From a virus, in the UHGV virus genome UHGV-1355725: a DNA stretch of 44,514 nucleotides; one strand, given 5' to 3'. Below, in pieces: positions 18,009 to 40,565 of this stretch. Under the pieces are notes generated by a model. The model did no database searches and was not told where the DNA came from. It was given only the letters and a program-made list of their open reading frames with translations. Position 1 is the first letter of the stretch. Every line of letters begins with the position of its first letter. The position numbers and the translations under genes are program-made.

Positions 18009-18468
18009 ATTCTGGCTTAGTGACCTTCGCCGCTTTGCTTACCACCTCTACACCATCGGCATCGGTAACTTTAACGAAGTATTCACCCGCCGCGTTAACC
18101 GTCAGAGACAAAGCCTCTTCCGGGGCGTTGACTACTTCCTTACCGTCTTTGTACCAGGTCAGCACATATGGCGCTTTGCCCGCCTTAACTTCAACAGTGA
18201 TAGTTGCGCTGCCGTCTGCTGGTTCGACGTCTTTCGGTTGCACCGAGAAGTACACGTCACCCGCGTCCGCCAGATACGGAATCTCATAAAGCATACCCGC
18301 CGCCGGGAGCGCAATACCGGTTTTATCCGCAAACGGCATATCGTCTACCGGTGTACCTAGTACACTTTCATCTTCGATAAATACCACATTCTCGCTAGAG
18401 CCAGACACGCGGGCGTACTGGACTACGCGACGAGAAGGTACATCAGTTACTTTGAAAAAGCCCATCAT
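18007..18468 (-). CDS. Ig-like domain structural protein
   Basis: 153 aa; C-terminal Ig-like segment (ATITVEVKAGKAPYVLTWYKDGKEV...GEYFVKVTDADG); coupled to the head morphogenesis gene. Confidence 0.45.
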   Translation of the reverse strand: MMGFFKVTDVPSRRVVQYARVSGSSENVVFIEDESVLGTPVDDMPFADKTGIALPAAGMLYEIPYLADAGDVYFSVQPKDVEPADGSATITVEVKAGKAPYVLTWYKDGKEVVNAPEEALSLTVNAAGEYFVKVTDADGVEVVSKAAKVTKPE

Positions 18469-20405
18469 TATTCCCCTTTCAGATAATCAGCAACACGTCT
18501 ATCGAGTTCCGCCATCTGCTTAAGCGTGAGCGGATTCCCGAAACCATCTACAGATATTACGCGAAACTCTTCCGGCGATATACCGCTGTTGCGGAAAATC
18601 TTACCCCGCACCGGGCCTAACGCCTGGTCCTGAAACCATGCAGGTTGTTGTTTAAGGAACTCGTAATAAGTGGTGTCCGCACTTACCTGAGTTCCGCCAT
18701 CTGCACCCTTAGCCGCGCGTTTTGCGCCTTTATCCAGGAAGTCGAACTCTGAACTGATTACAGGTGCCGTGGTACTTCGGCAGCCAAAATGGGCTGGGGG
18801 CATTGGCCCTTTACCAATCTCCCACGTCATTCCGTCTCTGGCCCTGCAATTCTTGACTATCGCACTACCTGCTGTATAATATCCTTGACTACTAGAGAGG
18901 GTATAAACATGGCACGTTCTAAACTCGACGCTTATGCGGATGATATTTGTTCTTTGTACCGAGATGGCACTCCCGCCAGCATCATAGCCAAGAATTACGG
19001 CGTCACTACCACCACGGTAACAACATTTCTCAAGAAGCTCGGACTCATGCATGATCGACCCCGTGGTTGGGTTTCTAACGACACCATTTTGAATCAAAAA
19101 AGGGCTATAGAATTGTTCGAGTCCGGCGTCCCGCCTATTGAGTGCATAAGAAGGACCCAAGTCAGCAAAACAGTTTTCTATTCTATGGTCAAAACACTTG
19201 GCCTCGCTAAGCGCGGGCACACTCACAGGACATTCACCCCGGAGGAGAAAATCGCCAGAGCTATCGTCCGACAGCAAAGCGGCGCTATGAATAAGACTGA
19301 AACCATCGCTTTTGAATTGTTTAATTCCGCTGGCGTGGACGTAGTTCCGCAGTTTGCAATCGGCCCGTACAATGTCGATTTTGCCATTGAGTCCCACTCC
19401 ATCGCCATAGAAATCTGTTGCCGCGGGACTCGTGCTTACCATTTTCCTGATGGGGAAATCAGCGAGCGTATTAAAAATATAATCCGCTCTGGCTGGCATG
19501 TTTATGTTCTTCACTGTTTCGAGCACAGTCACTTTGTCAACAGTGGTATACAAGACATGCTTAGTTGGATCGAGTTCATCAAGCGGAGTCCATCCGTATT
19601 GCGTGAGTACAGGGTGTTTCGGGGTGCCACTGAACTTCTCGCCGTTGGAAAGTTCGATGGTAAAGATTTTTCCTGAATAGAGTCCGCGCATTACCGCGTC
19701 CATCCCCGCGATGGGCGCTAATTCTGTTTCAGCCGTGAAACACGTTGTACTGGTACGGCTGTCCAATGTTGATACCCACTCATATTTCTCGATGATGTCG
19801 TCGTTCTGGCGGTACGTCTCGTTACGTGCTTCATTGGACACGTGAGACAGCGCGGTGCGGATTACAGTAGCCGCGTTACGTTCAGAGATGTCAGCCAGTC
19901 CGCCAGCGCCTACAACACTTTTAACAATCTGCCGCGTAGTTTGGCCTTGTACGAAGCCCATCTTAACGCCAGTTACCAGGCGCGCGACTTCTGTTTCACC
20001 CCAACCTGACATCAGCTTGGTGAAGTCAACAGGCTTGTCGCTCAGTGAGAGCGGCTGAAACTCGGCGGCGGCCCACACCTGTTCTGCGGTAGGTGTAACA
20101 AATTCCGCGTTAACGTTGGCGGTCAGTGTCTTTACGTTCCACTCAGCCTCATACTTCGCCAATTCCTTAAGGTCTTCTGTCAGCTTTGTTTGCCAGTCAC
20201 CTGTAAGCCAGGTTAGCGCTTCTTCAAGGTTGAGTAACAGTTTATTCAGTCGCGCAGTGCTCCGCCCGTCGTCGCCGAATAACAGCACCTGCCGTTTGAT
20301 TTCGTCCCGCATTTCCTGAATGAACGGTGCAAGGTCTTTCACTTCTCCGGAAGCGGTTCGTTGCAGCCATATCTGGTGGCTGATTAAGGATGTAAGTAAG
20401 CTCAT
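18468..20405 (-). CDS. head morphogenesis protein (SPP1 gp7 / Mu F-like) interrupted by an intein
   Basis: ATG 20405 with RBS AGGAGG; F-like motifs WVSTLDSRTSTT (before the intein) and GKGPMPPAHFGCRS (after); 298-aa insertion with intein signatures between them; located just after the portal gene. Confidence 0.7.
   Translation of the reverse strand: MSLLTSLISHQIWLQRTASGEVKDLAPFIQEMRDEIKRQVLLFGDDGRSTARLNKLLLNLEEALTWLTGDWQTKLTEDLKELAKYEAEWNVKTLTANVNAEFVTPTAEQVWAAAEFQPLSLSDKPVDFTKLMSGWGETEVARLVTGVKMGFVQGQTTRQIVKSVVGAGGLADISERNAATVIRTALSHVSNEARNETYRQNDDIIEKYEWVSTLDSRTSTTCFTAETELAPIAGMDAVMRGLYSGKIFTIELSNGEKFSGTPKHPVLTQYGWTPLDELDPTKHVLYTTVDKVTVLETVKNINMPARADYIFNTLADFPIRKMVSTSPAATDFYGDGVGLNGKIDIVRADCKLRNYVHASGIKQFKSDGFSLIHSAALLSDDSSGDFLLRGECPVSVPALSEAKCFDHRIENCFADLGPSYALNRRDAGLEQFYSPFLIQNGVVRNPTTGSIMHESELLEKCCYRGGSDAVILGYDAGGSAISVQRTNIIRISVEFRTCHVYTLSSSQGYYTAGSAIVKNCRARDGMTWEIGKGPMPPAHFGCRSTTAPVISSEFDFLDKGAKRAAKGADGGTQVSADTTYYEFLKQQPAWFQDQALGPVRGKIFRNSGISPEEFRVISVDGFGNPLTLKQMAELDRRVADYLKGE
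18853..18880 (+). promoter_or_regulatory. near-consensus sigma70-type promoter inside the intein, antisense to the head morphogenesis gene
   Basis: TTGACT (18853-18858), 16-bp spacer, TATAAT (18875-18880); RBS GAGAGGG and ATG 18909 follow. Confidence 0.5.
18909..19676 (+). CDS. nested antisense gene: HTH domains plus DUF559/Vsr-like (PD-(D/E)xK-type) endonuclease domain, candidate homing endonuclease
   Basis: 255 aa from ATG 18909; two HTH-like segments (IIAKNYGVTTTTVTTFLKKLGL; IECIRRTQVSKTVFYSMVKTLGL); C-terminal YNVDFAIESHSIAIEI...RSGWHVYVL resembling Vsr/DUF559 endonucleases; lies entirely within the intein on the opposite strand. Confidence 0.55.
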   Translation: MARSKLDAYADDICSLYRDGTPASIIAKNYGVTTTTVTTFLKKLGLMHDRPRGWVSNDTILNQKRAIELFESGVPPIECIRRTQVSKTVFYSMVKTLGLAKRGHTHRTFTPEEKIARAIVRQQSGAMNKTETIAFELFNSAGVDVVPQFAIGPYNVDFAIESHSIAIEICCRGTRAYHFPDGEISERIKNIIRSGWHVYVLHCFEHSHFVNSGIQDMLSWIEFIKRSPSVLREYRVFRGATELLAVGKFDGKDFS

Positions 20406-20448
20406 AGGCCCTCCTGTAGTATCGACAGTGTAACGCATAAAAATAATA

Positions 20449-20481
20449 TTTGCAGACACCAATATAATAGGGTACTATTCA
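20449..20481 (+). promoter_or_regulatory. class-1 promoter with embedded inverted-repeat operator
   Basis: TTGCAG (20449-20454), 17-bp spacer, TACTAT (20473-20478); inverted repeat AATAG-GGTA-CTATT 20466-20479; 40-nt block identical to the copy at 17689. Confidence 0.5.
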
Positions 20482-20506
20482 GTTAACTTAAACAGGGGGG
20501 TTAAAA

Positions 20507-20791
20507 ATGACACACAAATTTAAAGGTACAGACGGCGCATGGGTTAATCACGGAACAGCTATCTGGGCGGGGGACGTTTATGTGGCCGAGGTAATGAGTA
20601 TGCGGGAAAAGGACTCCGTAAAATTAGCTAACGCAAAACTTATCACCTCGGCACCCGAGTTACTTGAAGCACTTCGCCAGCTTCGCGATTACGTCGAGGA
20701 TGTTTGTGCAGTATCTTCTGATGATTGCCATGAAGACCATCCATTAAATCGGGCCAACAGAGCAATCAAGAAAGCATTAGGAAAGAAATAA
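20507..20791 (+). CDS. hypothetical protein (single-gene insertion)
   Basis: 94-aa ORF between the head morphogenesis and portal genes on the opposite strand; own promoter and terminator. Confidence 0.5.
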   Translation: MTHKFKGTDGAWVNHGTAIWAGDVYVAEVMSMREKDSVKLANAKLITSAPELLEALRQLRDYVEDVCAVSSDDCHEDHPLNRANRAIKKALGKK

Positions 20792-20794
20792 AAA

Positions 20795-20820
20795 TAAGGC
20801 CCCATAACGGGGCCTTTTTC
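20795..20820. terminator. bidirectional rho-independent terminator
   Basis: Hairpin AAGGCCCC-ataac-GGGGCCTT followed by TTTTTC; between convergent stops (20791 plus, 20822 minus). Confidence 0.6.
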
Positions 20821-20821
20821 T

Positions 20822-22297
20822 CTACTCCGATTGTTGTTGCTGCGCCGACTGCGGAATCTCCCCCGCTACCTGAGTACCCGCACCTAACGGCAGCGGCGCG
20901 TCCTCGATAGCATTCTGAATGTCCTCGTCTGTCCAGTCGGTTACGCCCGCCTTGCGCAACGCTGCGTAGTACGCAGTCGCTGGCAGCAAACCGGCGTTAA
21001 TATCGGCCATCCACTGAGCACGGTCCTGAGCGGTCATCGGTTGCAGGAAGAACTCCATGTTCAGTTTGAATTCAATCTCTGTGCCTTCACGCAACCCTAG
21101 CATTGCAGCTACCCAGCGCAGCGCATCGGTATACGCCATGCTTACGTTACGTGCGATTGTCGCCATAACAGACGTATCAGCACCGCGTTGCAGGCGGGCT
21201 GATTCGGCGGTGATTTGCTGCGTAGGGGTGATAAGCTGCGCACCAATCTGGATGGCCTGATTTTCTTTATCCAGCATGTTCTGCTTAGCGAGGTTGTTCT
21301 CCCCCGCCTGAACCAAGAACGCATTGCCGCCGTGACCGATGTTATGACCTGAGCGCGACCCCATACGCACGCCGTGAGGGTTGGCTTCTGCCCACTGTTC
21401 CATGCTCATGTTTTCACCGGGGGCGATGAACAGAGTGGGCTGGCCTACAACGAAGCTGGACTCCTCATTGTCTGCGCTGTTACGGAAATGCCCGATATTA
21501 AGCTCAGCTAACGGTAGCAAAGGCGCGTCATCGATGGTTGCGTCGTTGTTGCTTGCTCCGATGAACGTGAACGGGATTTTGCCGCGCAACTGTTCGCCAA
21601 GTTCCGGGAATATTTCGATTACTTCATCCTGGGCGCCACCTTCTGCGTCGAAGCGGTAAATGCGCTGGCGGTAGCGGCCATCAATCAGGTCGAGAACGCG
21701 GTATTGCTCCCCGAACTTTGTTTCGAACTCAGCGCCTGATTCAGAGTACTCCCATACTTCTCGCAACACGACCATCGTCACGCGGTTAACCGAACCGATG
21801 CGGGTCAGTCGCCAGTTGATGATGTTCTCTGCGGTGTAGAATGCGATGGCCGGGTTTAATAGCCCCGCGTTCTGTTCGGCTGCCGTTGCCGCAGCTGTCT
21901 CCGGGGCGTCCACCAGCAACCCGCCACGACCTACCGAGTCAATCTCCATTAGTGTATCCTGCGCGTGTTGCCACAGTCCGACACCGGAACCGTCGGCGTT
22001 ACGTAACAGGTACTCAAGCTCAGGCGGAATAATCTGCTCGGGGTCTTTGCGCATAACCGACCCCACCATCCCCGCCAGGGTACGTTTAGTGAAGTTGTAG
22101 CAGATAGCGCCGTTCTCATATTCTTCCTGGCGCTGGGCCGCGTAGGTGGGGTCAGGTTCGTTCTTACCGACGTTGCGAAGATAGCGGATAAGGTCGCCTT
22201 CCAGTGCGTGGCGCACCTTCTGCCATTTATCGAAGTGATGCAGCCATTCCCGGTGTTTTGTCTTAACACCCTGATTCTGACCGTTCATAGTTAACAT
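20822..22297 (-). CDS. portal protein
   Basis: 491-aa ORF, ATG 22297 with RBS AAGAGGA, directly downstream of the terminase large subunit; function positional. Confidence 0.65.
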   Translation of the reverse strand: MLTMNGQNQGVKTKHREWLHHFDKWQKVRHALEGDLIRYLRNVGKNEPDPTYAAQRQEEYENGAICYNFTKRTLAGMVGSVMRKDPEQIIPPELEYLLRNADGSGVGLWQHAQDTLMEIDSVGRGGLLVDAPETAAATAAEQNAGLLNPAIAFYTAENIINWRLTRIGSVNRVTMVVLREVWEYSESGAEFETKFGEQYRVLDLIDGRYRQRIYRFDAEGGAQDEVIEIFPELGEQLRGKIPFTFIGASNNDATIDDAPLLPLAELNIGHFRNSADNEESSFVVGQPTLFIAPGENMSMEQWAEANPHGVRMGSRSGHNIGHGGNAFLVQAGENNLAKQNMLDKENQAIQIGAQLITPTQQITAESARLQRGADTSVMATIARNVSMAYTDALRWVAAMLGLREGTEIEFKLNMEFFLQPMTAQDRAQWMADINAGLLPATAYYAALRKAGVTDWTDEDIQNAIEDAPLPLGAGTQVAGEIPQSAQQQQSE

Positions 22298-22309
22298 TGA
22301 ATAATCCTC

Positions 22310-23560
22310 TTAAAGTGCGAAAGTCACCGGGATGTTGATTACTGGTTTAACCACCGGCATCTCATAAACTACAGGATAGCCGAGAGCATCTGCCATATGG
22401 TCAATGATGCCGTCTTTAGCTGGCTCTCCGTTATCGTCATATGCCTGCTGCTCCAGCGTCTTGGCTATCTCAGGGCATAAGTGGTCGTTAACCCACAGCT
22501 TACCTTTTTCCAGCGCGGCATTCACGGCTAAAACGCGGTCTTTAACCGGTGGGTTGGCGGATTTAGCGCGAACATCGAAACCCGCCTGCTGTAGTAAGGC
22601 GATATCAGAGATTGACGCTGAGTTTGTCTTGCGGTTCTTGCCGCTGGCATCCGGGTAAACGACGATGCGGTGGCCTTGCAACTTCCACTTCTCAGTAATT
22701 ACACGCACGGTGTCCGGCGTATCAAACAGACCTTTCAGTTCTGCAACCGCATGCCAGCCGTCTTTACGTTGCACATACACGGCGCTGGCGTTCTTCGTAA
22801 CGTTGAAGTCCTGCCCGATGTACAGCGTGTCGCCAGGTTGAATTGTCTCTTTGCTGCGGTGCTTACGGCGGTCGTAGGCGTAATACACGCTGCCGGAGGT
22901 AAGGTTGACGAACTCACCGTTCAGATAAGCATTAATCAGTTGCGCCGGATAAGTCTCGGTTAGTGAGCTGATGTAGTCCGGAGGCAGGAATCGCGCGTTC
23001 TCATGTGTGGAAGCCTGCACCATTGAGTAACTTGGAGTTGGATTCTCTTTAAACTTGGCGTAGACGAACTTGAACCCTTCCGGCGTCGTGGTAACAGAGA
23101 TGTGGTTAGTTACACCAGGAATAACCAGACGCATACGGGCCACAATTTTGTTCCACGCCAGCTCGGCTTTCTCGCGGCTCAATACGTCCAGCTCATCCAC
23201 GACCGCTGCGGCGATTTTGAAGCCCACAATCGAGCCTGGGTTATCCATTGAACGGCAGATAACAGTTCCGAGCACTGTCTTACCGCGAGTTACAACGACT
23301 TCTTTGTCGCCAGATTTAACCAGCACATCGAGTCCGAGCAGGTTAGCCGCTTCCTCGAATGTCGGGTAGAAGATGTCGCGTATGGCCGGGTATGTCGGGC
23401 CGAAGTAGCCCAGGCGCGTACCGGGGTGCTTTAGCATAAACGTAAGCAGGTCGAGACAGCCAACAAATGTCTTGCCGCTGCCGAAGCCGCCGACATAGGC
23501 CTTGTATTTATTATCGCAGTTCAGGAACAACGCCTGTGGTGCAGATAGCTGAATACTCAT
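22310..23560 (-). CDS. terL: terminase large subunit
   Basis: Walker A GGFGSGKT, Walker B VVDELD, C-terminal nuclease-like region; RBS GGAGGA; 416 aa. Confidence 0.85.
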   Translation of the reverse strand: MSIQLSAPQALFLNCDNKYKAYVGGFGSGKTFVGCLDLLTFMLKHPGTRLGYFGPTYPAIRDIFYPTFEEAANLLGLDVLVKSGDKEVVVTRGKTVLGTVICRSMDNPGSIVGFKIAAAVVDELDVLSREKAELAWNKIVARMRLVIPGVTNHISVTTTPEGFKFVYAKFKENPTPSYSMVQASTHENARFLPPDYISSLTETYPAQLINAYLNGEFVNLTSGSVYYAYDRRKHRSKETIQPGDTLYIGQDFNVTKNASAVYVQRKDGWHAVAELKGLFDTPDTVRVITEKWKLQGHRIVVYPDASGKNRKTNSASISDIALLQQAGFDVRAKSANPPVKDRVLAVNAALEKGKLWVNDHLCPEIAKTLEQQAYDDNGEPAKDGIIDHMADALGYPVVYEMPVVKPVINIPVTFAL

Positions 23561-24102
23561 TCCTCCACCTCGCCCATGTTAGTTGTTACAATTTTACCTA
23601 CAGGCTCTGCAACACTGAAAATAATCTCGGTTGGTGCTGTTTCTTCGGCGGATTCAACTGGTTTCTCTTTGCCGAGGCCCAGCTTAGCGGCAGCGAATCT
23701 GGCCGAGATTCCGATAGCCCCGTTTTCTAAGAAGTAAGCCTCTTCAAGCGCTTTCGCGGTTTCATAGGCTTCCGCAAATGCAGGAATCTCGCGCAGCCAC
23801 AGATTAATAATTGGGATAGTTACCCCTATGTGTAGTGCGAATCGGACAAGAGATGGCGGTTTGTCCTGCATAAGAGCGCGTTTTTCACCTTTCGGCGTAA
23901 GCTCGAATTCCCATGACGTGCGGTCGAAGAACTCGATTAACGCGTCGCAATAGTCCGGGTCCCACAATGCGGCGGAATTACGGGATGATTGATAAAGGCT
24001 CTGTTTGCCGCGCGGTCGTTTACGGCGACGGTTTGCGCTAACAGCTTCTTCATGTGCAGCTTGCACCACCTCTGGTGATGGCTGCTTGAGTTTCAGCTTC
24101 AT
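23557..24102 (-). CDS. putative terminase small subunit
   Basis: 181-aa ORF from ATG 24102 (RBS AGGGGA), overlapping the terL start by 4 nt; assignment positional. Confidence 0.45.
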   Translation of the reverse strand: MKLKLKQPSPEVVQAAHEEAVSANRRRKRPRGKQSLYQSSRNSAALWDPDYCDALIEFFDRTSWEFELTPKGEKRALMQDKPPSLVRFALHIGVTIPIINLWLREIPAFAEAYETAKALEEAYFLENGAIGISARFAAAKLGLGKEKPVESAEETAPTEIIFSVAEPVGKIVTTNMGEVEE

Positions 24103-24195
24103 AGAATCCCCTTGCATATGCGTCTGACCATCAGAGCGCACCAGACGCGCCCTACGCGTCTAAATGGATTATATAAGGGGATTGGGCGGGATGTA

Positions 24196-24219
24196 CAGAA
24201 AAGCCCTCTACGGAGGGCT
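24196..24219 (-). terminator. rho-independent terminator upstream of the packaging genes
   Basis: Hairpin GCCCTC-cgta-GAGGGC followed on the minus strand by TTTTCTGT. Confidence 0.4.
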
Positions 24220-24321
24220 TGTATCAGTTGTATAGACCGTATCGTGAGGCTCTTTTACCATCGCCGCCGTAATGGTCGTTAGCTACGGCTATAGTCCAGG
24301 CGTTGGGTATGATTAGTAGTC

Positions 24322-24504
24322 TCATTTGAAGAACCACAAAAGGATGCCTGCGATACCTGAGATATACAGCCCGCCAACAATCATCCATAATTGAAGCCTA
24401 GGCAGTTGCTTCACTACGGGCCAACTTGATATAAGCGCCCATGCGAACGCCATAATAAATACATTATATCCAAAACGCCTAAGAAACTCTAAAACCTCAA
24501 TCAT
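24322..24504 (-). CDS. small membrane protein
   Basis: 60 aa with two hydrophobic segments. Confidence 0.4.
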   Translation of the reverse strand: MIEVLEFLRRFGYNVFIMAFAWALISSWPVVKQLPRLQLWMIVGGLYISGIAGILLWFFK

Positions 24505-24761
24505 TCCCTACTCTCCCCTTTAGCAATGCGTTGCTCTGTTTTAGTGATACCACGGCGTGTGAATAACACCGGGCTTGTCTTAACGTGCGTCATGAGACGA
24601 TTGTTATAAATTACATGGCGCTCGCAATCAACGTCTTTGCTGTACTTCGCAATGGTCATTTCGTTGATGCCTGTTTGTCTGCACGTCTCCGCCATCGTGC
24701 CAAATTCTTTAATCAGGTTCGGAATGCTGGTAATCATCCTAAGAAATTCCTCGTTGTCCAC
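24501..24761 (-). CDS. hypothetical protein with HTH-like segment
   Basis: 86-aa ORF; segment TMAETCRQTGINEMTIAKYS resembles an HTH; candidate regulator, inference only. Confidence 0.35.
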   Translation of the reverse strand: MDNEEFLRMITSIPNLIKEFGTMAETCRQTGINEMTIAKYSKDVDCERHVIYNNRLMTHVKTSPVLFTRRGITKTEQRIAKGESRE

Positions 24762-24908
24762 ATCGCATTCGGATATTTATTATCGCGGTCCTGCACTACG
24801 GCAATCATGTTACCGCGTTGCACGAGGCAGAAGTGCCGTTGTTGCTCGCCGTTGTAGCGACGCCATATTGCTTCTTCGATTGCTGAGTCGATGTCACTGA
24901 ACATACTC

Positions 24909-25091
24909 TCACCCCACTATCTCATCACCAAGCCACGCCGTTTCTCGTATATCATCGACAACACAAGCGGCGTGCTCACGGCTAATTGCAAAAATGTAGA
25001 AGCTGAACTTCTTCCCATCGGCGTAGATGTGGTTAACCGAGTAAGGTTTCCACAGGACGCCTTCTATAGCTACTGGCTCAGGCGCTTTCAT
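24909..25091 (-). CDS. hypothetical protein
   Basis: 60-aa ORF in the minus-strand small-gene block. Confidence 0.3.
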   Translation of the reverse strand: MKAPEPVAIEGVLWKPYSVNHIYADGKKFSFYIFAISREHAACVVDDIRETAWLGDEIVG

Positions 25092-25222
25092 TCTTCATGC
25101 GCTCAAGCAACAACTTAAACGCCTCCAGTTGAAACTCACCGTTAATCGACAGTTGCCCGCCTAACGTCTGTTTCTCCGACTCGAGTACCAGAATACGCTG
25201 CTCAAGTGATGCGATTGTGATT

Positions 25223-25411
25223 TTAGGCATTGGTGTCACCCTTGTTCAGGTTGAAGCGGTTAATCAGTTCACGGCGGCGTTCCATAAGGACGTCTACTAA
25301 TTGCGCGTGGTGTTTAATCCTGGCATCGAGGACCGCTAATTCTCTTAATGCCTCGTTTGTTTTGCCGTTAACGGCCTCTACCATCATCTTTTCGTATTCA
25401 CGGTCAGTCAT
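25223..25411 (-). CDS. hypothetical protein
   Basis: 62-aa ORF, helical/charged. Confidence 0.4.
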   Translation of the reverse strand: MTDREYEKMMVEAVNGKTNEALRELAVLDARIKHHAQLVDVLMERRRELINRFNLNKGDTNA

Positions 25412-25984: not shown

Positions 25985-26003
25985 CTAGTCATTACCGAAA
26001 ATA

Positions 26004-30668: not shown

Positions 30669-30700
30669 CAGTTTCGTTAACTGATAATGAGGGTTTGAGA

Positions 30701-33565: not shown

Positions 33566-33704
33566 ACGCCGAACAGTTAATTGCAGAGTTGAAGCAGTGC
33601 GAACAGGATAACGACGGCCAATTTATTGTTTCTGAGGATTTAATCTGCGGTCTTGTTTCGTTTCTTGAAAATCTGCCGAAGGTGATAGTAGAGGGGTAAA
33701 AAGA

Positions 33705-33723
33705 AAGGGGCGTTAAGCCCCTT
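33705..33723. terminator. hairpin terminator between convergent genes
   Basis: GGGGC-gttaa-GCCCC with T-run on the minus strand; overlaps the stop codon of the XRE gene. Confidence 0.4.
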
Positions 33724-33928
33724 CACCGAACGCCAGCCACTTGGCGTCTACTTGCAGCACTTTAGCCAGTTTAAACAGCGTAGCCGGGCGGACGTCCTGA
33801 GTTACACCGAGTGCCAGCTGGTTAATCGCGCCCTGGGAAACGCCGGTCAGCACCGCCAGACGGCGCTGAGAGAGGCCGAGTTCTTTACGGCGTTGTTCTA
33901 CGCGGATGCCTAGTTCAGATGGTTGCAT
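33713..33928 (-). CDS. XRE-family (Cro/C1-type) HTH transcriptional regulator
   Basis: 71 aa; LGLSQRRLAVLTGVSQGAINQLALG HTH; RBS AAGGAG; divergent from the rightward operon with operator-bearing promoters in the intergenic region. Confidence 0.8.
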   Translation of the reverse strand: MQPSELGIRVEQRRKELGLSQRRLAVLTGVSQGAINQLALGVTQDVRPATLFKLAKVLQVDAKWLAFGEGA

Positions 33929-33956
33929 GTCAATTACTCCTTAGTCAGTTGATATG

Positions 33957-33990
33957 TGAATAGTACCATATTAATTATTTTAGAAAAGCC
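33957..33990 (-). promoter_or_regulatory. class-1-like promoter/operator for the regulator gene
   Basis: Minus strand TACTAT (rc of 33960-33965) with imperfect repeat AATAG-TACC-ATATT (33959-33972); weak -35 (CTTTTC). Confidence 0.4.
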
Positions 33991-33992
33991 CA

Positions 33993-34022
33993 TTGACAAC
34001 ATGAATAGTTAGCTATTATAGT
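33993..34022 (+). promoter_or_regulatory. class-2 promoter with embedded inverted-repeat operator
   Basis: TTGACA (33993-33998), 18-bp spacer, TATAGT (34017-34022); inverted repeat AATAG-TTAG-CTATT 34004-34017. Confidence 0.55.
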
Positions 34023-34054
34023 TAGCCCATACCAAACGAGAGGAGAGAAACAAA

Positions 34055-34516
34055 ATGTTAGAGAAATTCTTAGTATTACTGGAACGTTTCGTAGTTGCGC
34101 ATGAACTGATTGCCGCGAATAGTGCGAAACAAGTTGTCGTTGCTGAAACCGCAACAATCGAGCCTACTGTTGCAGCAAAAGAAATCCCGGTCGAAGGTGA
34201 AGACATCGTTGACACTAAACCAGCAGAAGAAGAGAAGCCGAAACGCAAGCCGCGTAAAGCTAAAGTAGAGGAACCGACGCCAGAGCCGGAAGAAGAGAAA
34301 GAAGAGGTCGATTATAAGTCTCTGCGTGACCAGATTCAGGCTATTGACGATGCGATTAACGAAGGTCCTAGCGATGCCGCGTGCGATGATTCCGATGAAC
34401 TGCTGGAAGAGTTCACCGGCAAGAAGATGAAGATTGCTGCGATTAAAGACGAAGACCTGGCTGAGTACCTGGAACGCCTGACAGCAATCAAGAACAAGTA
34501 TTTCGAAGAAGAATAA
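34055..34516 (+). CDS. acidic hypothetical protein
   Basis: 153 aa, Glu/Asp/Pro/Lys-rich, low complexity; RBS GAGAGGAG; first gene after the class-2 promoter. Confidence 0.5.
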   Translation: MLEKFLVLLERFVVAHELIAANSAKQVVVAETATIEPTVAAKEIPVEGEDIVDTKPAEEEKPKRKPRKAKVEEPTPEPEEEKEEVDYKSLRDQIQAIDDAINEGPSDAACDDSDELLEEFTGKKMKIAAIKDEDLAEYLERLTAIKNKYFEEE

Positions 34517-34558
34517 CCATCTGGCGGCCTTCGGGCCGCTTTAACTGAGGGCAAAGAA

Positions 34559-34768
34559 ATGAAAATAAGACTACTGAACGACGGGGGATTTGCGGAGCTG
34601 TCGAGTATTAATTTTCCGGTAGAAGTTAATGCGGACGATTGGCTCGGTATGGGCTTCGATGTTAGAGAGACAGAGTTTGACAAATTTGGGCTAAAGCTAA
34701 GGTCTGAGTGTGATGACGATATGTTCTATTTTAGCTTGGCTAATGGTGAGTGTGAGGTTGTGGAATGA
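34559..34768 (+). CDS. hypothetical protein
   Basis: 69-aa ORF. Confidence 0.4.
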   Translation: MKIRLLNDGGFAELSSINFPVEVNADDWLGMGFDVRETEFDKFGLKLRSECDDDMFYFSLANGECEVVE

Positions 34769-35037
34769 TTTACCAACTCTACCGCGCTGTAGACAGGCGG
34801 GATAACACGGAGGCGCTATGGCTGTTGCGTGCGCCGTCCGGTGCGCACCAGATGGAGGAGATGGCGTACTTAGGCAAAGCGCCACGGCCTAAAGATATAG
34901 GCCGTCATGTTTCGCAGATTAAGCGCACGACTTTCGCCAAGCCCGACTTTTATGTCTTCGAGTCTATGTATGGGTGGGCCATGCACTGCGATCATAAGAC
35001 CAGGCATTTAATTGACCAGTGGGAGAACGGGGTATGA
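34765..35037 (+). CDS. hypothetical protein
   Basis: 90-aa ORF overlapping its neighbours. Confidence 0.4.
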   Translation: MIYQLYRAVDRRDNTEALWLLRAPSGAHQMEEMAYLGKAPRPKDIGRHVSQIKRTTFAKPDFYVFESMYGWAMHCDHKTRHLIDQWENGV

Positions 35038-35291
35038 ATTGGATTAGCGTAAACGAAGAATTACCAGAGTCAAAAGATGATTCTGTTTTAGTTTGCTCAG
35101 TAGATGGCAGTAAATATGACGATAACGGATTCCCGGAAGGTGGAGTTGATTTTGTACATATACAGGACTATTTCGACGACATTACTGCTTGGTTGGATGA
35201 AAACGGAAATCAGTTATATACGAAACGGTATGTAGAGATGGGTATAACGCACTGGATGTATTTACCGGAACTACCAGAGGACGTTAAATAA
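35034..35291 (+). CDS. DUF551-like phage protein
   Basis: MNWISVNEELPES...W...YLPELPE pattern; ATG overlaps the upstream stop. Confidence 0.45.
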   Translation: MNWISVNEELPESKDDSVLVCSVDGSKYDDNGFPEGGVDFVHIQDYFDDITAWLDENGNQLYTKRYVEMGITHWMYLPELPEDVK

Positions 35292-36541
35292 TGATTCTTA
35301 AAGAACGTGGTGGCAACAACGATGTACACGCCTTACTGTCGCCGTCTGGCGCTAAAAAGTGGCTAAGCTGTGCGGCGTCACTGGCCTGTGAAAAAGATAT
35401 TCCTAACACGTCCGGTAAAGCTGCGGTATTGGGCACCGCTATGCACACCATAGCGGAGATGCACCTTAACCAGTACATAAAAGGTACTGCGTTACCGTTA
35501 GAGCGTGAAGTCGGTGCTTACGTGCTGGACGAGGGTAAAGGCCAGATTAAGGCGCTAATTAGCCCGATGAAAGGCGCGGTACTGATTACGGCTGACATGA
35601 TTGAGCAGGTGCGCAAGTACACCGACTACTGCAAAGCTGTTATCGATGTAGCGACTTACGCCAAACTCGAGATGCGTGTCAATCTTACTGAGGTATTGCA
35701 TCCAGGGTATGAGGGCGTTGAGACGTTCGGAACCGCTGACCTTGTTGCAGTTCAGGAACTGGCTAACACCGACGAACACATGCTCATTATTGGCGACCTG
35801 AAAACAGGACGACATCGTGTCGAAGCGAAAGAAAACAAACAGCTTATGCTATACGCTCTCGGTGTTTATCGCCGCCTCAAGAGACGCTATAACATCACCC
35901 TTGTTCGTCTGGTTATCTTCCAGCCGTACGCCGAGGGCGCGTCGGAGTGGGACATCTCGGTTGAAGGTCTGGAGCTGTTCGCTAAGTTCGCACAGAAACG
36001 TGCACTGTTAGCGCTTGATGCCTATTCCCGCGGCAAGAAGAACCTGAAAGCGTCTGACTTCAAGCCGTCTGTCGATGGTTGTCAGTGGTGCCGGTTCTCT
36101 GAACAATGCACCGCGCGTACAAAAACCGTTAACTCTGTACTGGCGGAAGAACTGGAGGACGACTTTGCACTGGAACTTACGCCAGAGCAACTCGTAGCTG
36201 AGTATGAGAAGTTGCCGTTGCTGCTCCAGCATATCGACAAGGTCGAGAAAGCTATGGCGGCCGCGTTGCATTCCGGTAAGAAAGTTCCGGGGTACAAGTT
36301 GGTTGAAGGCCGTCCTGGTAATCGTGCGTGGAAAGACGCCGATGCGATTGAAGTGTCACACGGCGACATTCTGAAAAAAGAGGTATTGATGTCCCCTACG
36401 GAGGCAGCAAAAGTTCTTTCGGCGGATGAGATGGCAGCGCTTGAGCCGTTTATTACCCGTAAGCCAGGAGCGCCATGTGTCGCAACGGCGGACGACAAAC
36501 GGCCTGAGTGGCATAAGGTTAGCGAAGAAGATTTAGAATAA
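35291..36541 (+). CDS. PD-(D/E)xK exonuclease, Cas4/RecB-like with Fe-S cysteines
   Basis: 416 aa; motifs GTADLVAV, IIGDLKTG, QLMLYALG; cysteine cluster CAASLAC ... CQWCRFSEQC. Confidence 0.7.
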   Translation: MILKERGGNNDVHALLSPSGAKKWLSCAASLACEKDIPNTSGKAAVLGTAMHTIAEMHLNQYIKGTALPLEREVGAYVLDEGKGQIKALISPMKGAVLITADMIEQVRKYTDYCKAVIDVATYAKLEMRVNLTEVLHPGYEGVETFGTADLVAVQELANTDEHMLIIGDLKTGRHRVEAKENKQLMLYALGVYRRLKRRYNITLVRLVIFQPYAEGASEWDISVEGLELFAKFAQKRALLALDAYSRGKKNLKASDFKPSVDGCQWCRFSEQCTARTKTVNSVLAEELEDDFALELTPEQLVAEYEKLPLLLQHIDKVEKAMAAALHSGKKVPGYKLVEGRPGNRAWKDADAIEVSHGDILKKEVLMSPTEAAKVLSADEMAALEPFITRKPGAPCVATADDKRPEWHKVSEEDLE

Positions 36542-36545
36542 AGTG

Positions 36546-36574
36546 TTGACACCTGAATAGTTAGCTATTATAGT
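36546..36574 (+). promoter_or_regulatory. class-2 promoter with embedded inverted-repeat operator
   Basis: TTGACA (36546-36551), 17-bp spacer, TATAGT (36569-36574); inverted repeat AATAG-TTAG-CTATT 36556-36569, identical core to the copy at 34004. Confidence 0.55.
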
Positions 36575-36628
36575 TCTAATCACTGGCCGGGCAGCTTCCC
36601 GGAGTAAACTGAAAAGCGAGAAACTAAG

Positions 36629-37255
36629 ATGGGTATTAAACTGAATCTGCGTAAAGTAAACACTGCATGGGTTAACGTATTCGAACGCGAAAAAGACCGT
36701 GAAAACGATGATGGCTCAATCACTAAAGGCCAGTACAGCGCGACTATCATCCTGCCGTCTGACCATGCTCAAATCGACGCGCTCTACGATACCGTTTACG
36801 CTGTAGTTGAAGAAGCGTTGGGCGCAGCCGCCGCCGAGAAGTGGATGAAGTCCAACTACGGCGAAGGTAAGCACATGGATAAATGCGCTATTAAAGACAT
36901 CGCCGAACGCGACAATCCTTTTGAAGACTTCCCGGAAGGCTTTTACTTCAAAGCGAAGGCACAGAAACAGCCACTGATTGTAACCTCTAAAAAAGGTGAG
37001 ACTCAGGTAGAGCAGGACTTCAACGTAGACGGAGAACAGATTGAAGGTGAACAGGTTTACAGTGGCTGCGTCGCTAACGTAAGCGTCGAAATCTGGTTCA
37101 GCCAGAAATATAAAGTTCTCGGTGTTAACCTGCTGGCGATTAAATACGTTGGTGAGGGTAAAGCGTTCGGTGGTTCTAAAGTCGCTGCAAGTGTCAATGA
37201 CCTGGAAGACGACGAAGAAGATGAAGCACCGCGCCGCGAACGTCGCCGCCGTTAA
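36629..37255 (+). CDS. ssDNA-binding protein (T7 gp2.5-like)
   Basis: 208 aa; overall resemblance to gp2.5-type SSB with acidic C-terminal region DLEDDEEDE; sits between exonuclease and polymerase. Confidence 0.5.
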   Translation: MGIKLNLRKVNTAWVNVFEREKDRENDDGSITKGQYSATIILPSDHAQIDALYDTVYAVVEEALGAAAAEKWMKSNYGEGKHMDKCAIKDIAERDNPFEDFPEGFYFKAKAQKQPLIVTSKKGETQVEQDFNVDGEQIEGEQVYSGCVANVSVEIWFSQKYKVLGVNLLAIKYVGEGKAFGGSKVAASVNDLEDDEEDEAPRRERRRR

Positions 37256-37272
37256 TATCTGAATCAATTTAA

Positions 37273-37298
37273 CTAAGGCCCTTCATTGGGCCTTTTTA
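37273..37298 (+). terminator. rho-independent terminator
   Basis: Hairpin AAGGCCC-ttcatt-GGGCCTT followed by TTTT. Confidence 0.5.
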
Positions 37299-37466
37299 CT
37301 AAGGGTCGAAAATCATGTTTTTCTGTAAGCACGTATACCGATATATGAAACCGCTTCCGTGGTACGCGGATGAGTACCGCGCCGGGTACAGGCATGTGTG
37401 GATTTGCCGTGATTGTATGAAAATAAGACTCAGCGAAACGAAGGCAATGGATTTAAGGAAAAAGAA

Positions 37467-40400
37467 ATGAGCTACTTATACCTGGACTTTGAAACATTCT
37501 CCGAAGCCGATTTAAAGAAAGTCGGCTCCTACGCTTACGCCGAACACCCGTCAACCGAAGTTCTTATCTGTACATACGCTTTTGACGACGAGCCTGTACA
37601 GGTATGGGACTGCACAGACGGCAGCGACATGCCTGGGGATTTGCACCGCGCACTACGCCGTCTGGTGAAACCAAACAGCCGCATTAAGATGGTGTGGCAT
37701 AACGGCTCAATGTTCGATCGCCTCATCATGAAACACTGCTGGGGCTTTGATATTCCGGTAAGTAACACCATTGATACGATGATTTGGGCGTTTCGTCACG
37801 CGCTGCCGGGTTCACTTGACGCATTGTGTGAAGTGCTGGGCGTGTCCGCAGATAACGCGAAAGACAAACGTGGCAAGGCGCTGATTCAGCGTTTCTCTAA
37901 ACCTACACCGAAGAACTACAAAATCCGCCGCTACACCGCCGAAACACACCCGGACGAGTGGGCGCTGTTCATCAAGTACGCCGTGAGTGACATCACTGCG
38001 ATGCGCGAAGTATTCCATAAGCTGCCTCGTTGGGGTAACTCAGAGTTTGAAGACCGTGTACTGGAACTGGACCAGTTAATTAACGACCGCGGGTTTAAGG
38101 TTGACGTCGCACTGGCGGAAGCCGCGATCGAAGCCGTGGAGAAGCACAAGACACAGTTACAGGAAGAAGCCCAACGCAAATACGGCGGCTCGCTTACTGG
38201 TAAAGACTTCCTCCCTATTCTGCGTGAACTCGCCCCAGCGCACCGCATCCACAATGCGCAGAAGTCTACGCTGAATGACCTGCTGGCAGACGACGATTTA
38301 CCGGACGACGCCCGCGCGATTATAGAAATGCGCCTCGGGGCCGCGTCCACCGCGTCAACGAAATATAACCCATTGCTATTAGGCCGCTCATCGGACGACC
38401 GTCGCCGCGGTTGTTTACAGTACGGCGGGGCAAAACGTACCCTGCGATGGGCGGGTAAAGGCTTCCAGCCGCAGAACCTGGCGCGCGGTTACTATCACGA
38501 TGATGAACTGGATAAAGGCATTTCTGCGCTACTTAAGGGCCGTGCGCATCGCCGTTTTGATGTAGCCAAGCTAACGGCATCGACGGTGCGTAGCTGCATC
38601 ATACCGGAAGCCGGATATAAGTTTGTCGTCGCCGATTACTCTAACGTTGAAGGCCGCGGGCTTGCGTGGCTGGCGGGCGAAGAAACCGCGCTTGATACGT
38701 TCCGCGCCGGACTGGATATTTACTGTGTAACCGCAGGTAAGATGTTCGGCATGGACCCCGACGATATTAAGAAAGAACGTAAAGACTTGCGCCAGATTGG
38801 TAAAGCGTGCCTTCACCGTCATACCCTAGTTTTGACCGATGGCGGATTTAAGGATATTATGGCGGTTACATCAACAGATAAAGTATGGAGCGGTGAAAAA
38901 TGGGTGAATACAAAAGGCGCGCACCTTATGGGGTGGAAACCGGTAATAAATGTGGACGGGGTGCTAATGACCGAAGACCACAAAATCTTGGCGCATTCCT
39001 GGAAGCAGGCAAAGCAACTCGCTTCAAACAGATATATGATGGGCCTCGCCCTGGAGAGAGGTATGGACGCCTGGTTATCCTGCGCGAGTTACCAAAACGA
39101 CAAGGCCAAAGACAACTACTCGTCCAATGTGATTGCGGAGAGATGCCGTGGCGGGTCTATTACGACAATGTCAGAGCGGGTAAAACCACTCAATGCAACC
39201 GCTGCGCCCTTGAAGCAACAAAAAAATATCGTAAACAGTATTTCTGCTACGAAGACGCAATGCCGGATGATGCGCACAGAACAAGATTACTCAACCGGCT
39301 GTCCGCGGCGATCACGCGAACAACAAGCCCCAGGAATAAGGGTTATAAAAACTATGGTGCCAGGGGCATCACGGTATTCGACCAGTGGAGGACTGATAAA
39401 AGGTCGTTTCTTGGATATGTTCAAACTCTGGAAGGCTGGGACGACCCAAACCTCGAAATGGATAGAATCGACACAGACGGTAACTACGAACCTGGAAACA
39501 TTCGGTTTGTCAGCCGTTCTGAAAACTGCCGAAACAGACGGCAAATACCCGAGCTTCAACGAAAGTATGATGCAGCCGTTGCCCGCATTGCTGAACTTGA
39601 ACGGGAAATTAGCCTATTGCGAGCCGGTGTACGACCTGATTGATGTGGAAGACGGCAACCGTTTTCTTATAGCCTCAGACTCTGGCTTTCTTGTGGCGCA
39701 TAACTGCGAGCTTGGCCTCGGCTATGAGGGGGGTGTCGGTGCTTTCGTTACGTTTGCTAAAAACTTAGGTCTTGACCTTATCGAGATGGCAAAAACAATG
39801 GACGGTACTTTCCCGGGCCACATATGGGCAGCTACCGCACGCGGTTATGAGTGGGCGCGTATCCAGGAAGCAAAGCGACCGCCGCAGCCCGGCGAAAAGG
39901 ACGACCGACCGTCGTATATTTTGGACAAGAAAGTGTGGCGCACATGCGACGCGATCAAGCGTATGTGGCGCGAGTCACACCCGGAAACAGTAGCGTTCTG
40001 GCGCGACCTTAAAGACGGAATTTTAGCCGCTGTGCGTAATCCAGGTCGTGAATTTTGGGCGGGGGCACACTTGCGCAGGAATGGGGAAAGGGCAATCCGC
40101 ATATGGCGTACTGTAGAATTTGATTCATCCGGTAGGAAGGTTCCTGGTTGGTGGTTATGCATGGAGTTGCCGTCAGGCCGCATCCTCTCGTATCCGGGAA
40201 TCGGCGTTAGTGTGACAAAGGAAACAGACGAAGACGGACGGGTAAACACGAATGTGCGAATCAAGTATCAGGGGGAAAACCAGTTAACCCGCCAATGGAC
40301 CACCCTGTACACACACGGCGGCAAGGCCTGCGAAAACATTGTTCAGGCGCTGTGCCGCGATTTACTTGCCTATGCGATGATTAACGTTGAGGGTGGTGGG

Positions 40401-40565
40401 TATCCCATCGTGCTTTCTGTACACGATGAATTGGTATGCGAAACTCCAGATACGCAGGAATACAACGTGGCTGAACTGGAAAAATTAATGTGCGCGTTGC
40501 CGGAATGGGCAGAAGGCTTCCCTCTTGTAGCGGAAGGTGCGGAGATGAAGCGTTATGCTAAGTAA
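37467..40565 (+). CDS. family A DNA polymerase with 3'-5' exonuclease domain, interrupted by an intein
   Basis: Exo motif YLDFETFS, motif A VVADYSNVEGRGLAWL, motif C VLSVHDELV; ATG 37467 with RBS AAGGAA; a 299-aa insertion splits motif B (RQIGKA / CELGLGYEGG). Confidence 0.85.
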   Translation: MSYLYLDFETFSEADLKKVGSYAYAEHPSTEVLICTYAFDDEPVQVWDCTDGSDMPGDLHRALRRLVKPNSRIKMVWHNGSMFDRLIMKHCWGFDIPVSNTIDTMIWAFRHALPGSLDALCEVLGVSADNAKDKRGKALIQRFSKPTPKNYKIRRYTAETHPDEWALFIKYAVSDITAMREVFHKLPRWGNSEFEDRVLELDQLINDRGFKVDVALAEAAIEAVEKHKTQLQEEAQRKYGGSLTGKDFLPILRELAPAHRIHNAQKSTLNDLLADDDLPDDARAIIEMRLGAASTASTKYNPLLLGRSSDDRRRGCLQYGGAKRTLRWAGKGFQPQNLARGYYHDDELDKGISALLKGRAHRRFDVAKLTASTVRSCIIPEAGYKFVVADYSNVEGRGLAWLAGEETALDTFRAGLDIYCVTAGKMFGMDPDDIKKERKDLRQIGKACLHRHTLVLTDGGFKDIMAVTSTDKVWSGEKWVNTKGAHLMGWKPVINVDGVLMTEDHKILAHSWKQAKQLASNRYMMGLALERGMDAWLSCASYQNDKAKDNYSSNVIAERCRGGSITTMSERVKPLNATAAPLKQQKNIVNSISATKTQCRMMRTEQDYSTGCPRRSREQQAPGIRVIKTMVPGASRYSTSGGLIKGRFLDMFKLWKAGTTQTSKWIESTQTVTTNLETFGLSAVLKTAETDGKYPSFNESMMQPLPALLNLNGKLAYCEPVYDLIDVEDGNRFLIASDSGFLVAHNCELGLGYEGGVGAFVTFAKNLGLDLIEMAKTMDGTFPGHIWAATARGYEWARIQEAKRPPQPGEKDDRPSYILDKKVWRTCDAIKRMWRESHPETVAFWRDLKDGILAAVRNPGREFWAGAHLRRNGERAIRIWRTVEFDSSGRKVPGWWLCMELPSGRILSYPGIGVSVTKETDEDGRVNTNVRIKYQGENQLTRQWTTLYTHGGKACENIVQALCRDLLAYAMINVEGGGYPIVLSVHDELVCETPDTQEYNVAELEKLMCALPEWAEGFPLVAEGAEMKRYAK
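38808..39704 (+). mobile_element. intein in the DNA polymerase
   Basis: Begins CLHRHTLVLTDGG, block-B-like GVLMTEDHKILAHSW, ends VYDLIDVEDGNRFLIASDSGFLVAHN followed by extein Cys; the central part of the host frame is open but compositionally non-protein-like. Confidence 0.65.
38900..39643 (+). CDS. HNH-family endonuclease encoded in an alternative frame inside the polymerase intein
   Basis: Codon phase offset by one nucleotide from the polymerase; motifs RYGRLVILREL, CDCGEMPWRVYYDNVRAGKTTQCNRC, YKNYGARGITV, IDTDGNYEPGNIRFVSRSENCRNR; ATG 38900 preceded by GGAG/GGTGA; exact start uncertain. Confidence 0.6.
   Translation: MGEYKRRAPYGVETGNKCGRGANDRRPQNLGAFLEAGKATRFKQIYDGPRPGERYGRLVILRELPKRQGQRQLLVQCDCGEMPWRVYYDNVRAGKTTQCNRCALEATKKYRKQYFCYEDAMPDDAHRTRLLNRLSAAITRTTSPRNKGYKNYGARGITVFDQWRTDKRSFLGYVQTLEGWDDPNLEMDRIDTDGNYEPGNIRFVSRSENCRNRRQIPELQRKYDAAVARIAELEREISLLRAGVRPD

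Follow-up and report, generated by a model that had tools for sequence, protein, structure and literature searches.

Inteins that carry a homing endonuclease outside their own reading frame have been described previously. Gosselin, Arsenault and Gogarten (bioRxiv 10.1101/2025.01.02.630785) found such inteins in actinobacteriophages, where the endonuclease is either antisense (VSR-like or LAGLIDADG) or in frame 3 (endonuclease VII-like). In their set, SPP1 gp7-type minor-capsid inteins were exclusively noncanonical, and they propose the invasion of inteins by free-standing endonuclease genes. An earlier case, an antisense LAGLIDADG open reading frame (ORF) in the Synechocystis DnaX intein, is cited there from Gorbalenya (1998). 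The "fractured genes" of Dassa et al. (2009, PMC2677866) have split inteins whose halves are separated by a free-standing gene for a Vsr-like endonuclease, and the ShiLan insertion (Arsenault et al. 2025, PMC11855218) is an out-of-frame "hidden" HNH inside a phage methylase gene. T4 mobE with the I-TevIII intron (PMC2790892) is an example of collaborative, or trans, homing. Here we describe two inteins of the virus genome UHGV-1355725, one in a head-morphogenesis gene and one in a DNA polymerase gene, each of which shares its DNA with a predicted nuclease gene. The whole stretch analyzed, 44,514 nucleotides, is referred to as the window; phage-genome BLAST placed it in Kagunavirus (Guernseyvirinae), among K1G/Golestan-like coliphages. 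We consider it quite probable that these loci are two independent composite mobile elements, each consisting of an intein and a separate homing endonuclease gene nested in its DNA.

The span from 18468 to 40565 brackets two separate elements of ~0.9 kb each (Table 1). Both host ORFs are contiguous. The head ORF is listed as 18468-20462 (minus strand; 664 codons), and its true start is likely the ATG at 20405, which matches the 1938-nt coding sequence (CDS) annotated in fEg-Eco06; records of relatives name this 1938-nt CDS "minor head protein with inserted intein." The head intein is a precise insertion of 894 nt when set against the intein-free alleles in Golestan and SHAK7693, with the junctions DSRTSTT/CFTAE...AIVKN/CRARDG (slashes mark the splice junctions) in place of DSRTSTI/CRARDG in Golestan, whose head protein gp03 is 347 amino acids (aa) long. 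The penultimate intein residue is Lys (KN/C) in place of His, and the homologue L020 has HN. In profile searches, the head frame matched the PI-MtuI RecA mini-intein (1e-6) and also the Pho RadA and DnaB inteins; Pfam Intein_splicing gave a partial match below the cutoff. The polymerase ORF is 1050 codons long, and the annotated CDS of relatives is 3099 nt; some of these records read "intein-containing DNA polymerase precursor," and the record of Salmonella phage Ent2 annotates the polymerase intein. This intein is an exact 897-nt insertion (RQIGKA/CLHRH...LVAHN/CELGLGY versus RQIGKA/CELGLGY in Golestan). The polymerase-frame profile matched the NEQ068 split-intein N half (8e-4) and PI-MtuI (3e-3), and Pfam Intein_splicing had no match on it. 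Precise insertion, terminal and block motifs, and HINT similarity were found for both inserts, identifying them at the sequence level as precisely bounded class 1 inteins. No third intein was found in the large ORFs scanned (primase/helicase, SNF2 helicase, and others).

Table 1. Features of the two intein loci (window coordinates, except where nucleotides of the polymerase intein are given)
Feature	Position	Strand	Remarks
Head-morphogenesis / minor head protein gene, intein precursor	18468-20405	-	Phage_Mu_F, SPP1 gp7-like, Pfam E 1e-7
Head intein, 298 aa	18849-19742	-	Cys1, block B TPKH, C-terminal IVKN, +1 Cys
Sigma-70-type promoter-like site (candidate for antisense gene)	18853-18880	+	Sequence signal; TTGACT-16 nt-TATAAT, 11/12 matches
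Shine-Dalgarno-like AGAGAGGG	18894-18901	+	7 nt before ATG 18909
Antisense nested gene, 255 aa, putative tandem helix-turn-helix + Vsr-like nuclease	18909-19676	+	Profile matches, AlphaFold2 model
DNA polymerase A gene, intein precursor	37467-40565	+	Pfam DNA_pol_A, DNA_pol_A_exo1 (3'-5' exonuclease + polymerase domains)
Polymerase intein, 299 aa	38808-39704	+	Cys1, block B TEDH, C-terminal VAHN, +1 Cys
Promoter-like site (candidate)	38832-38860	+	TTGACC-17 nt-TATTAT, 10/12 matches; upstream of HNH gene, intein block A
Shine-Dalgarno-like GGAGCGGTGA (GGAG/GGTGA)	38887-38896	+	Before ATG 38900
Nested HNH-type gene, 247 aa	38900-39643	+	+2 frame, wholly within polymerase intein; PHROG HNH families
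Polymerase frame constrained, HNH frame unconstrained	Intein nt 1-92		
Both frames partly constrained	Intein nt 93-270		Few changes
HNH frame constrained	Intein nt 271-780		dN/dS 1.1-1.2 polymerase frame, 0.06-0.12 HNH frame
Polymerase frame constrained, HNH frame unconstrained	Intein nt 781-897		

Neither host frame encodes a recognized endonuclease. In Pfam, PHROGs, NCBIfam, and PDB-profile searches, the host-frame inteins matched splicing motifs and known inteins, with no endonuclease domain among the Pfam, NCBIfam, and PDB matches. The one other match was to phrog_93 (PHROGs), which is named "endonuclease" (E 7e-190) and appears to be the polymerase/intein ORF family of these phages themselves. 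The initial annotation had proposed that both inteins lack an in-frame endonuclease and that one nuclease gene is antisense and the other frame-shifted. The searches and the nested ORFs bear this out, and neither insert proved to be a conventional in-frame LAGLIDADG or HNH intein.

The polymerase intein was compared in 11 independently sequenced phages from three genera, at 82 to 98% nucleotide identity. The intein is always 897 nt long, and the polymerase and HNH frames are stop-free in 11/11 phages, whereas the third sense frame contains 24 to 31 stops. Across the overlap, the variable sites at polymerase codon positions 1, 2, and 3 numbered 27, 102, and 56; position 2 of the polymerase frame is position 3 of the HNH frame. 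The ratio of nonsynonymous to synonymous substitution rates (dN/dS) showed that constraint passes from the polymerase frame to the HNH frame and back again along the intein (Table 1). Codon-level selection favors the HNH frame in the center, and the HNH ORF is therefore a genuine protein-coding gene. In this central part, the polymerase frame is selected solely to stay open; host-frame centers are unalignable between distant copies, and host-frame conservation among divergent polymerase inteins is limited to residues 1 to 85 and 275 to 299.

The same layout was found far beyond these phages. The IMG/VR survey covered the best 80 of 287 relatives of the polymerase element, and the HNH ORF lies in the same +2 frame in 80/80 of these loci, from 98 down to 41% identity. 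The host ORFs are 600 to 1280 codons long, nearly all match both polymerase exteins by BLAST at 23 to 98% identity, and the intein junction ...HN/C falls at the same conserved motif. Four divergent metagenome contigs also have this polymerase layout. These data establish the pairing of polymerase intein and HNH gene as an old, stable family that is not peculiar to this genome.

The antisense ORF in the head intein is listed as 18789-19676, but the homologue alignment identifies the conserved ATG at 18909 as its true start. From there on, the ORF is, codon for codon, the exact reverse complement of intein codons 24 to 278, with intein residue j paired with antisense residue 279-j. Five phages, including the window, made up the comparison set; the ORF is intact in 5/5, and 4/6 variable sites are synonymous in the antisense frame. 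There are only three database homologues of the antisense protein, at 53, 44, and 26% identity, and in all three the opposite strand is stop-free from contig end to contig end and encodes a Mu-F head-protein intein. The ratio of nonsynonymous to synonymous polymorphism (pN/pS) was 0.3 to 0.6 in the antisense frame and 0.7 to 1.2 in the head frame, and both converged on ~0.4 around block B. Amino acid identity was likewise higher in the antisense frame in all segments but intein residues 24 to 58 (around block B), where the two frames are equally conserved. A conserved motif of the head frame, TDFYGDG, reads as the opposite-strand shadow of the nuclease motif AIEICCRG. The layout of the head element is identical in the 5 phages and in several metagenome contigs.

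Taken together, the survey of related genomes at both sites showed that the frame and strand of the nuclease ORF are kept, and the codon-position analysis of both overlaps showed that the nuclease frame is favored in the center and that both frames are constrained at the edges. Both nested genes are under purifying selection, and the architecture has persisted through deep divergence. The initial annotation had spoken of a host frame that is kept open. Selection does keep it open, but that wording is too weak for the edges of both overlaps, where constraint acts on two frames together and the coding is truly dual.

Chance openness is excluded for both overlaps. Synonymous codons of each nuclease gene were resampled with the phage's own codon usage; 4.8 and 5.9 host-frame stops were expected, and the probability of finding none was ~0.003 and ~0.002. 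For the converse case, a nuclease frame left open by chance, P was <1e-4. Elsewhere in the window, open stretches at a +2 offset reached at most 58 codons. The nested ORFs might nevertheless be relics, in which case the inteins would be immobile and vertically inherited and the frames would be open by inertia or composition. Chance codon-aligned antisense ORFs of up to 187 codons elsewhere in the window are in keeping with such an origin, and close head-intein copies differ at 6 sites only, so that selection is not directly measurable there. We consider relics very unlikely, given the low HNH-frame dN/dS (0.06 to 0.12), the P value for chance openness, the near-identical inteins within divergent exteins, and ORFs that are intact with conserved starts down to 41% (HNH) and 25% (antisense) identity.

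There is next to no probability that sequencing, assembly, or annotation errors have disguised ordinary in-frame LAGLIDADG or HNH inteins. The SS3e record has a fragmented polymerase that suggests sequence errors, but both frames are open over 897 nt in all 11 phages, 163/166 matching GenBank records cover at least 80% of the polymerase intein, the layout recurs in 80 metagenomic viral contigs, and the head layout is the same in 5 phages and several metagenome contigs. The antisense gene, moreover, cannot be "corrected" into frame. The view of the initial annotation that the arrangement is not an annotation artifact is thus upheld by the conserved lengths and frames.

Phage genes often contain introns that encode HNH or Vsr-like (I-Bth0305I) endonucleases, and relative to the polymerase the nested HNH gene is in the -1 frame; both facts are compatible with self-splicing introns that carry endonucleases or with an HNH domain joined to the intein by ribosomal frameshifting. 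We regard these possibilities as extremely unlikely. The host frame is kept stop-free, with intein motifs and HINT similarity, and no Rfam family, group I and II introns included, was matched at E values up to 1 in the whole window or in either region. Recoding was rejected: in the HNH frame, the ATG is preceded by a stop 2 codons upstream, no slippery heptamer is found there, and a return shift would be needed. A fractured gene or split intein was also rejected, as the host ORFs are contiguous here and likewise in all relatives checked.

We also assessed mobility. The head intein has 6/894 variable sites, compared to ~17% in the flanking exteins of the same 5 phages, and only 4 of ~200 related GenBank records carry it. 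The polymerase intein occurs in 166/413 related records, from Jerseyvirus, Kagunavirus, and Dhillonvirus. It is 96% identical to the SETP3 copy, with flanking exteins at 83% and 91%, and 83% identical to the Dhillonvirus copies, with flanks at ~72%. From near-identical inteins in divergent exteins and from their patchy presence, we infer that both inteins are mobile. Dual coding cannot explain the near-identity of the head inteins.

How the two arrangements arose was considered separately for each element. The polymerase element might once have had an in-frame HNH that compensating frameshifts moved to the +2 frame, where it gained its own start. In favor of this, the HNH gene shares the strand of the polymerase gene and occupies the usual place of an endonuclease domain, phage inteins with an in-frame HNH are known (as cited by Gosselin et al.), and the identical relative frame at 80/80 loci indicates a single ancient event of some kind. 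However, no in-frame relative was found among the best 80 of 287 loci or the 120 proteins listed, and the HNH ORF enters the N-terminal splicing region by ~30 codons and block F by ~8 codons and has its own ribosome-binding site (RBS) and ATG. The frameshift account also leaves out the antisense element, since an antisense arrangement cannot arise by frameshift, and we think it unlikely. Invasion of a mini-intein by a free-standing endonuclease gene, the route suggested in the initial annotation and already published as a model by Gosselin et al., is plausible and fits the data: the lack of an in-frame relative among those loci and proteins agrees with it, and each nested gene has its own start codon and its own RBS-like and promoter-like site. 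Neither an ancestral mini-intein nor a free-standing close relative was identified, and the invasion route is therefore one that we infer.

The initial annotation had further taken the recurrence within one genome as a sign of a shared evolutionary route. This claim did not hold up. A common origin of the two elements was rejected, as their nuclease families, distributions, and orientations are unrelated. The lack of kinship and the independent distributions also make the argument from co-occurrence weak, as does the canonical LAGLIDADG intein of a relative, and the presence of both elements in one genome is coincidental. That relative is Ent2 (Jerseyvirus), in which a canonical 348-aa intein with an in-frame LAGLIDADG lies inside the SNF2 helicase (locus L026, 1489-2532). 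The SNF2 helicase orthologue of the window (41597-43021; 474 aa) lacks the Ent2-type LAGLIDADG intein. Within Guernseyvirinae, at least four intein sites and three different endonuclease arrangements were seen.

The nested polymerase gene belongs to a family with 285 database homologues of 170 to 270 aa; the 120 proteins listed are all at most 268 aa. Its product, a putative HNH-type (beta-beta-alpha-metal) endonuclease-like protein, has a disordered N-terminal tail, a Cys4 zinc-ribbon / SH3-like domain, a conserved DRID...N...N motif, and a C-terminal helix. It matched the PHROG HNH-endonuclease families phrog_374 (E 3e-46) and phrog_3377 and phrog_2081 (1e-21 to 8e-21), with a weak match to PHROG endonuclease VII (7e-5). 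Two of the 285 homologues, Sodalis phage SO-1 gp39 and the SS3e protein, are named "HNH endonuclease." In the AlphaFold2 (AF2) model (predicted local distance difference test score [pLDDT], 74.6), residues 1 to 45 are disordered, and this is the part that overlaps the N-terminal splicing region of the intein. His126, in the motif DDxHRTRLLNRL, is nearly invariant in the family. Almost all of the database proteins come from contigs of ~1 kb or from the extreme ends of longer contigs (e.g., L021, L022, and L024). Gene callers likely report the nested HNH ORF only when the overlapping polymerase ORF is truncated, and assemblies may also break at intein-present/absent polymorphisms; either cause amounts to a systematic blind spot for nested genes.

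The antisense product is best read, from profile and model comparisons, as tandem helix-turn-helix (HTH) DNA-binding domains followed by a Vsr-like (I-Bth0305I-like) PD-(D/E)XK nuclease. Pfam gave weak matches to HTH_7 and MTES_1575 (the latter at 20 bits against a 38-bit cutoff), and PDB profiles matched the tandem-HTH protein 2lvs (4e-6) and, over the whole domain, the I-Bth0305I catalytic domain 3r3p (E 0.098). The AF2 model (pLDDT, 73.6) matched 3r3p with a probability of 1.00 and a template modeling (TM) score of 0.68, 3hrl with a probability of 0.99, and Vsr itself (1cw0/1vsr) with probabilities of 0.98/0.93, at Foldseek E values of ~1e-2. Residues E131, D157, and E168 are invariant in 4 homologues.

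Both elements carry candidate expression signals (Table 1). At the head intein, the TTGACT/TATAAT pair is kept in the 44%-identity homologue L018 and as TTGACT/CATAAT in L017; GAGGGTATAAACATG is kept in L017 and L018, and L020 carries GAGGTTGTAAACATG. These signals are the reverse complement of intein block F/G codons, with the -35 box in IVKN and the -10 box in GYY. The RBS-like site overlaps the "TL" codons of HVYTL, and the ATG at 18909 is the complement of the HVYTL His codon. A terminator-like stem-loop (19696-19718, plus strand; 9 pairs, 6 of them G-C) lies 20 nt past the antisense stop codon, within the N-terminal codons of the intein; it has a weak T-run, TAATTCTGTT, and may end the antisense transcript. 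At the polymerase intein, the TTGACC/TATTAT site is kept in Kagunavirus, Jerseyvirus, and Dhillonvirus copies, which may simply reflect the conserved VLTDGG codons. The ATG at 38900 lies within the conserved intein GEKW codons and is kept in 11/11 close copies, with an equivalent ATG in L021 to L024.

In the composite-element model, the host protein would be translated straight through the insert, and an N part of ~85 to 100 aa and a C part of ~25 to 45 aa would form the HINT domain, with the 150 to 190 aa between them serving as a stop-free linker of unconstrained sequence. Protein splicing would then restore the head protein or the polymerase, as the motifs, the open frames, the essential nature of the host genes, and the viability of intein-bearing isolates suggest. 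The HNH-type protein would start at its own RBS and the ATG at 38900, from the polymerase message or an internal promoter, and the HTH + Vsr-like protein would be made from an antisense transcript driven by the near-consensus promoter within the last 20 codons of the intein. During coinfection, the nuclease would cut an intein-free allele, and repair would copy in the intein together with the nuclease gene (homing), in line with the population patterns. Splicing, expression, and cleavage are thus predicted steps for both elements.

Several observations weigh against this model or its details. The HNH assignment rests on PHROG family names, without fold support; no Pfam HNH domain was found in any of 16 family members, and an invariant Arg (DRID; D188, R189) stands where HNH_3 proteins have the catalytic first His (DHID). 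The catalytic mechanism of the nested HNH-type protein may be atypical. The Vsr-like assignment has weak E values in both the Foldseek and the hidden Markov model (HMM) comparisons given above, and close head-intein copies offer only 6 variable sites. The promoter and RBS sites of both genes overlap conserved intein codons; their conservation may be a by-product and is therefore no independent sign that they function. For the polymerase element, higher conservation of the intein than of its exteins is not pure evidence of recent transfer, because dual coding by itself raises conservation.

The head protein family has a second intein site. The two sites are only 20 codons apart: site a (TSTT/C) is occupied in the window, and site b (PPAHxx/C), downstream, is empty there (18785-18848), where the protein reads uninterrupted PPAHFG-CRSTT. 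Site b inteins (PPxHxx/C...HN/CR) occur in L020, L108, L109, and coliphage Snoke (L110, 4137-4952), and each has a codon-aligned antisense HTH + Vsr-like ORF. The antisense genes at sites a and b are only ~25% identical to each other. The GenBank annotation of Snoke lists the intein and not the antisense gene, and papers on the Snoke, KMB36, and UPWr_S phages mention the head intein and not the antisense gene. L109, a high-GC viral contig, has two inteins in one head-protein ORF. The first, of 380 aa, is at the site used in the window and is overlapped by a 377-codon codon-aligned antisense ORF (3341-4480) with five CxxC zinc-ribbon repeats followed by a DUF559/Vsr-like motif (LDFAF...LALEVDG...GW.VL); its sequence indicates a different DNA-binding module joined to the same nuclease type. 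Antisense Vsr-like genes recur in this head protein family.

Two other loci in the window were inspected. A free-standing HNH_3 endonuclease gene (10081-10554, plus strand; Pfam E 2.5e-21) overlaps the end of a phosphoesterase-like gene (8945-10084) by 4 nt, lies in the kilobase of lowest GC content in the window (0.43 versus ~0.50), and is probably another mobile homing-endonuclease gene. Its protein is unrelated to the intein-nested HNH in an hhalign comparison (probability, 1.3%). An ORF of 340 codons (15629-16651, plus strand) runs opposite the major capsid and scaffold genes (15038-16087 and 16090-16845; both minus strand), where the GC content of the window is highest. It was dismissed as a gene; it has no family match and is probably a chance open frame.

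It is possible, and we suggest it tentatively, that the two elements are stable "overprinted" partnerships, unrecognized in phages of Enterobacteria, in which intein and nuclease gene form a co-adapted unit and not a transient invasion state. The frame relation conserved at 80/80 loci does show that the state can be long-lived and need not be transitional. If the suggestion is correct, the +2-frame HNH genes in PolA inteins would make up an ancient family of hundreds, in exteins down to ~25% identity, apparently overlooked because gene-calling programs leave the nested ORF out. For its promoter, RBS, and start codon, the antisense gene would rely on the reverse complement of the catalytic C-terminal blocks of the intein, there would be stretches functional in both frames, the partners would not be easily separable, and the nuclease could be transcribed by the host RNA polymerase against the late operon.

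These arrangements matter for how inteins are annotated and understood. In the GenBank records inspected, neither nested gene is annotated at these inteins, and only SO-1 and SS3e name an HNH protein. Such inteins could be mistaken for endonuclease-free, immobile ones, although the evidence here points to mobility. A splicing module and an endonuclease that are separate genes sharing DNA bear on the model of "splicing first, endonuclease later," and the long overlaps of 247 and 255 codons are clear-cut cases in which the passage of constraint from one frame to the other can be measured. The inteins tolerate 150 to 190 residues of essentially arbitrary linker, which may be of interest for protein engineering. 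Kagunavirus and Jerseyvirus phages are used in therapy and biocontrol, and active homing elements in the polymerase and head genes of such phages could drive recombination between members of a cocktail.

Compared with the known systems, the elements described here share parts of each. Like the fractured genes, the head element has a predicted Vsr-like (EDxHD-type) endonuclease that is a separate gene and not a domain; there, however, two host ORFs are joined by trans splicing, whereas here the nuclease gene overlaps a contiguous host ORF. The ShiLan insertion resembles the polymerase element in having an HNH-type gene in an alternative frame, a stop-free host frame, and a patchy, homing-like distribution, but it is without a detectable splicing domain, in contrast to the clear intein termini and HINT similarity found here. 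In the mobE type of system, a free-standing endonuclease gene mobilizes a neighboring splicing element that masks the insertion, as the nested genes would do here; that system involves RNA introns with adjacent or intron-nested genes, and neither splicing of proteins nor long stretches of dual coding play a part in it. The intein of Synechocystis DnaX, as cited by Gosselin et al., also has its endonuclease ORF opposite a contiguous intein, and the nuclease family, host gene, and organism differ.

The closest match is with the actinobacteriophage inteins of Gosselin et al. In both cases, an unbroken intein contains the nuclease gene, which is antisense or in frame 3, and the host frame is open; the hosts include an SPP1 gp7-type minor capsid protein and a DNA polymerase; the inteins are nearly identical where their exteins diverge; and the VSR-like nuclease resembles I-Bth0305I (3R3P). 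The two sets differ in that the hosts here are phages of Enterobacteria (Kagunavirus, Jerseyvirus, and Dhillonvirus), the polymerase is of family A where theirs is Pol III alpha, the out-of-frame nuclease falls into PHROG HNH families where theirs is endonuclease VII-like, and the nested ORFs run well into the splicing regions. In the available part of that preprint, selection is not analyzed at the codon level, and the words "promoter" and "Shine" occur seldom or not at all. The architecture is therefore already known, and what is new are its members in enterobacterial phages and in PolA. To the known architecture, the present analysis adds codon-level selection, a very deeply conserved frame relation, and genuine dual-coding edges.

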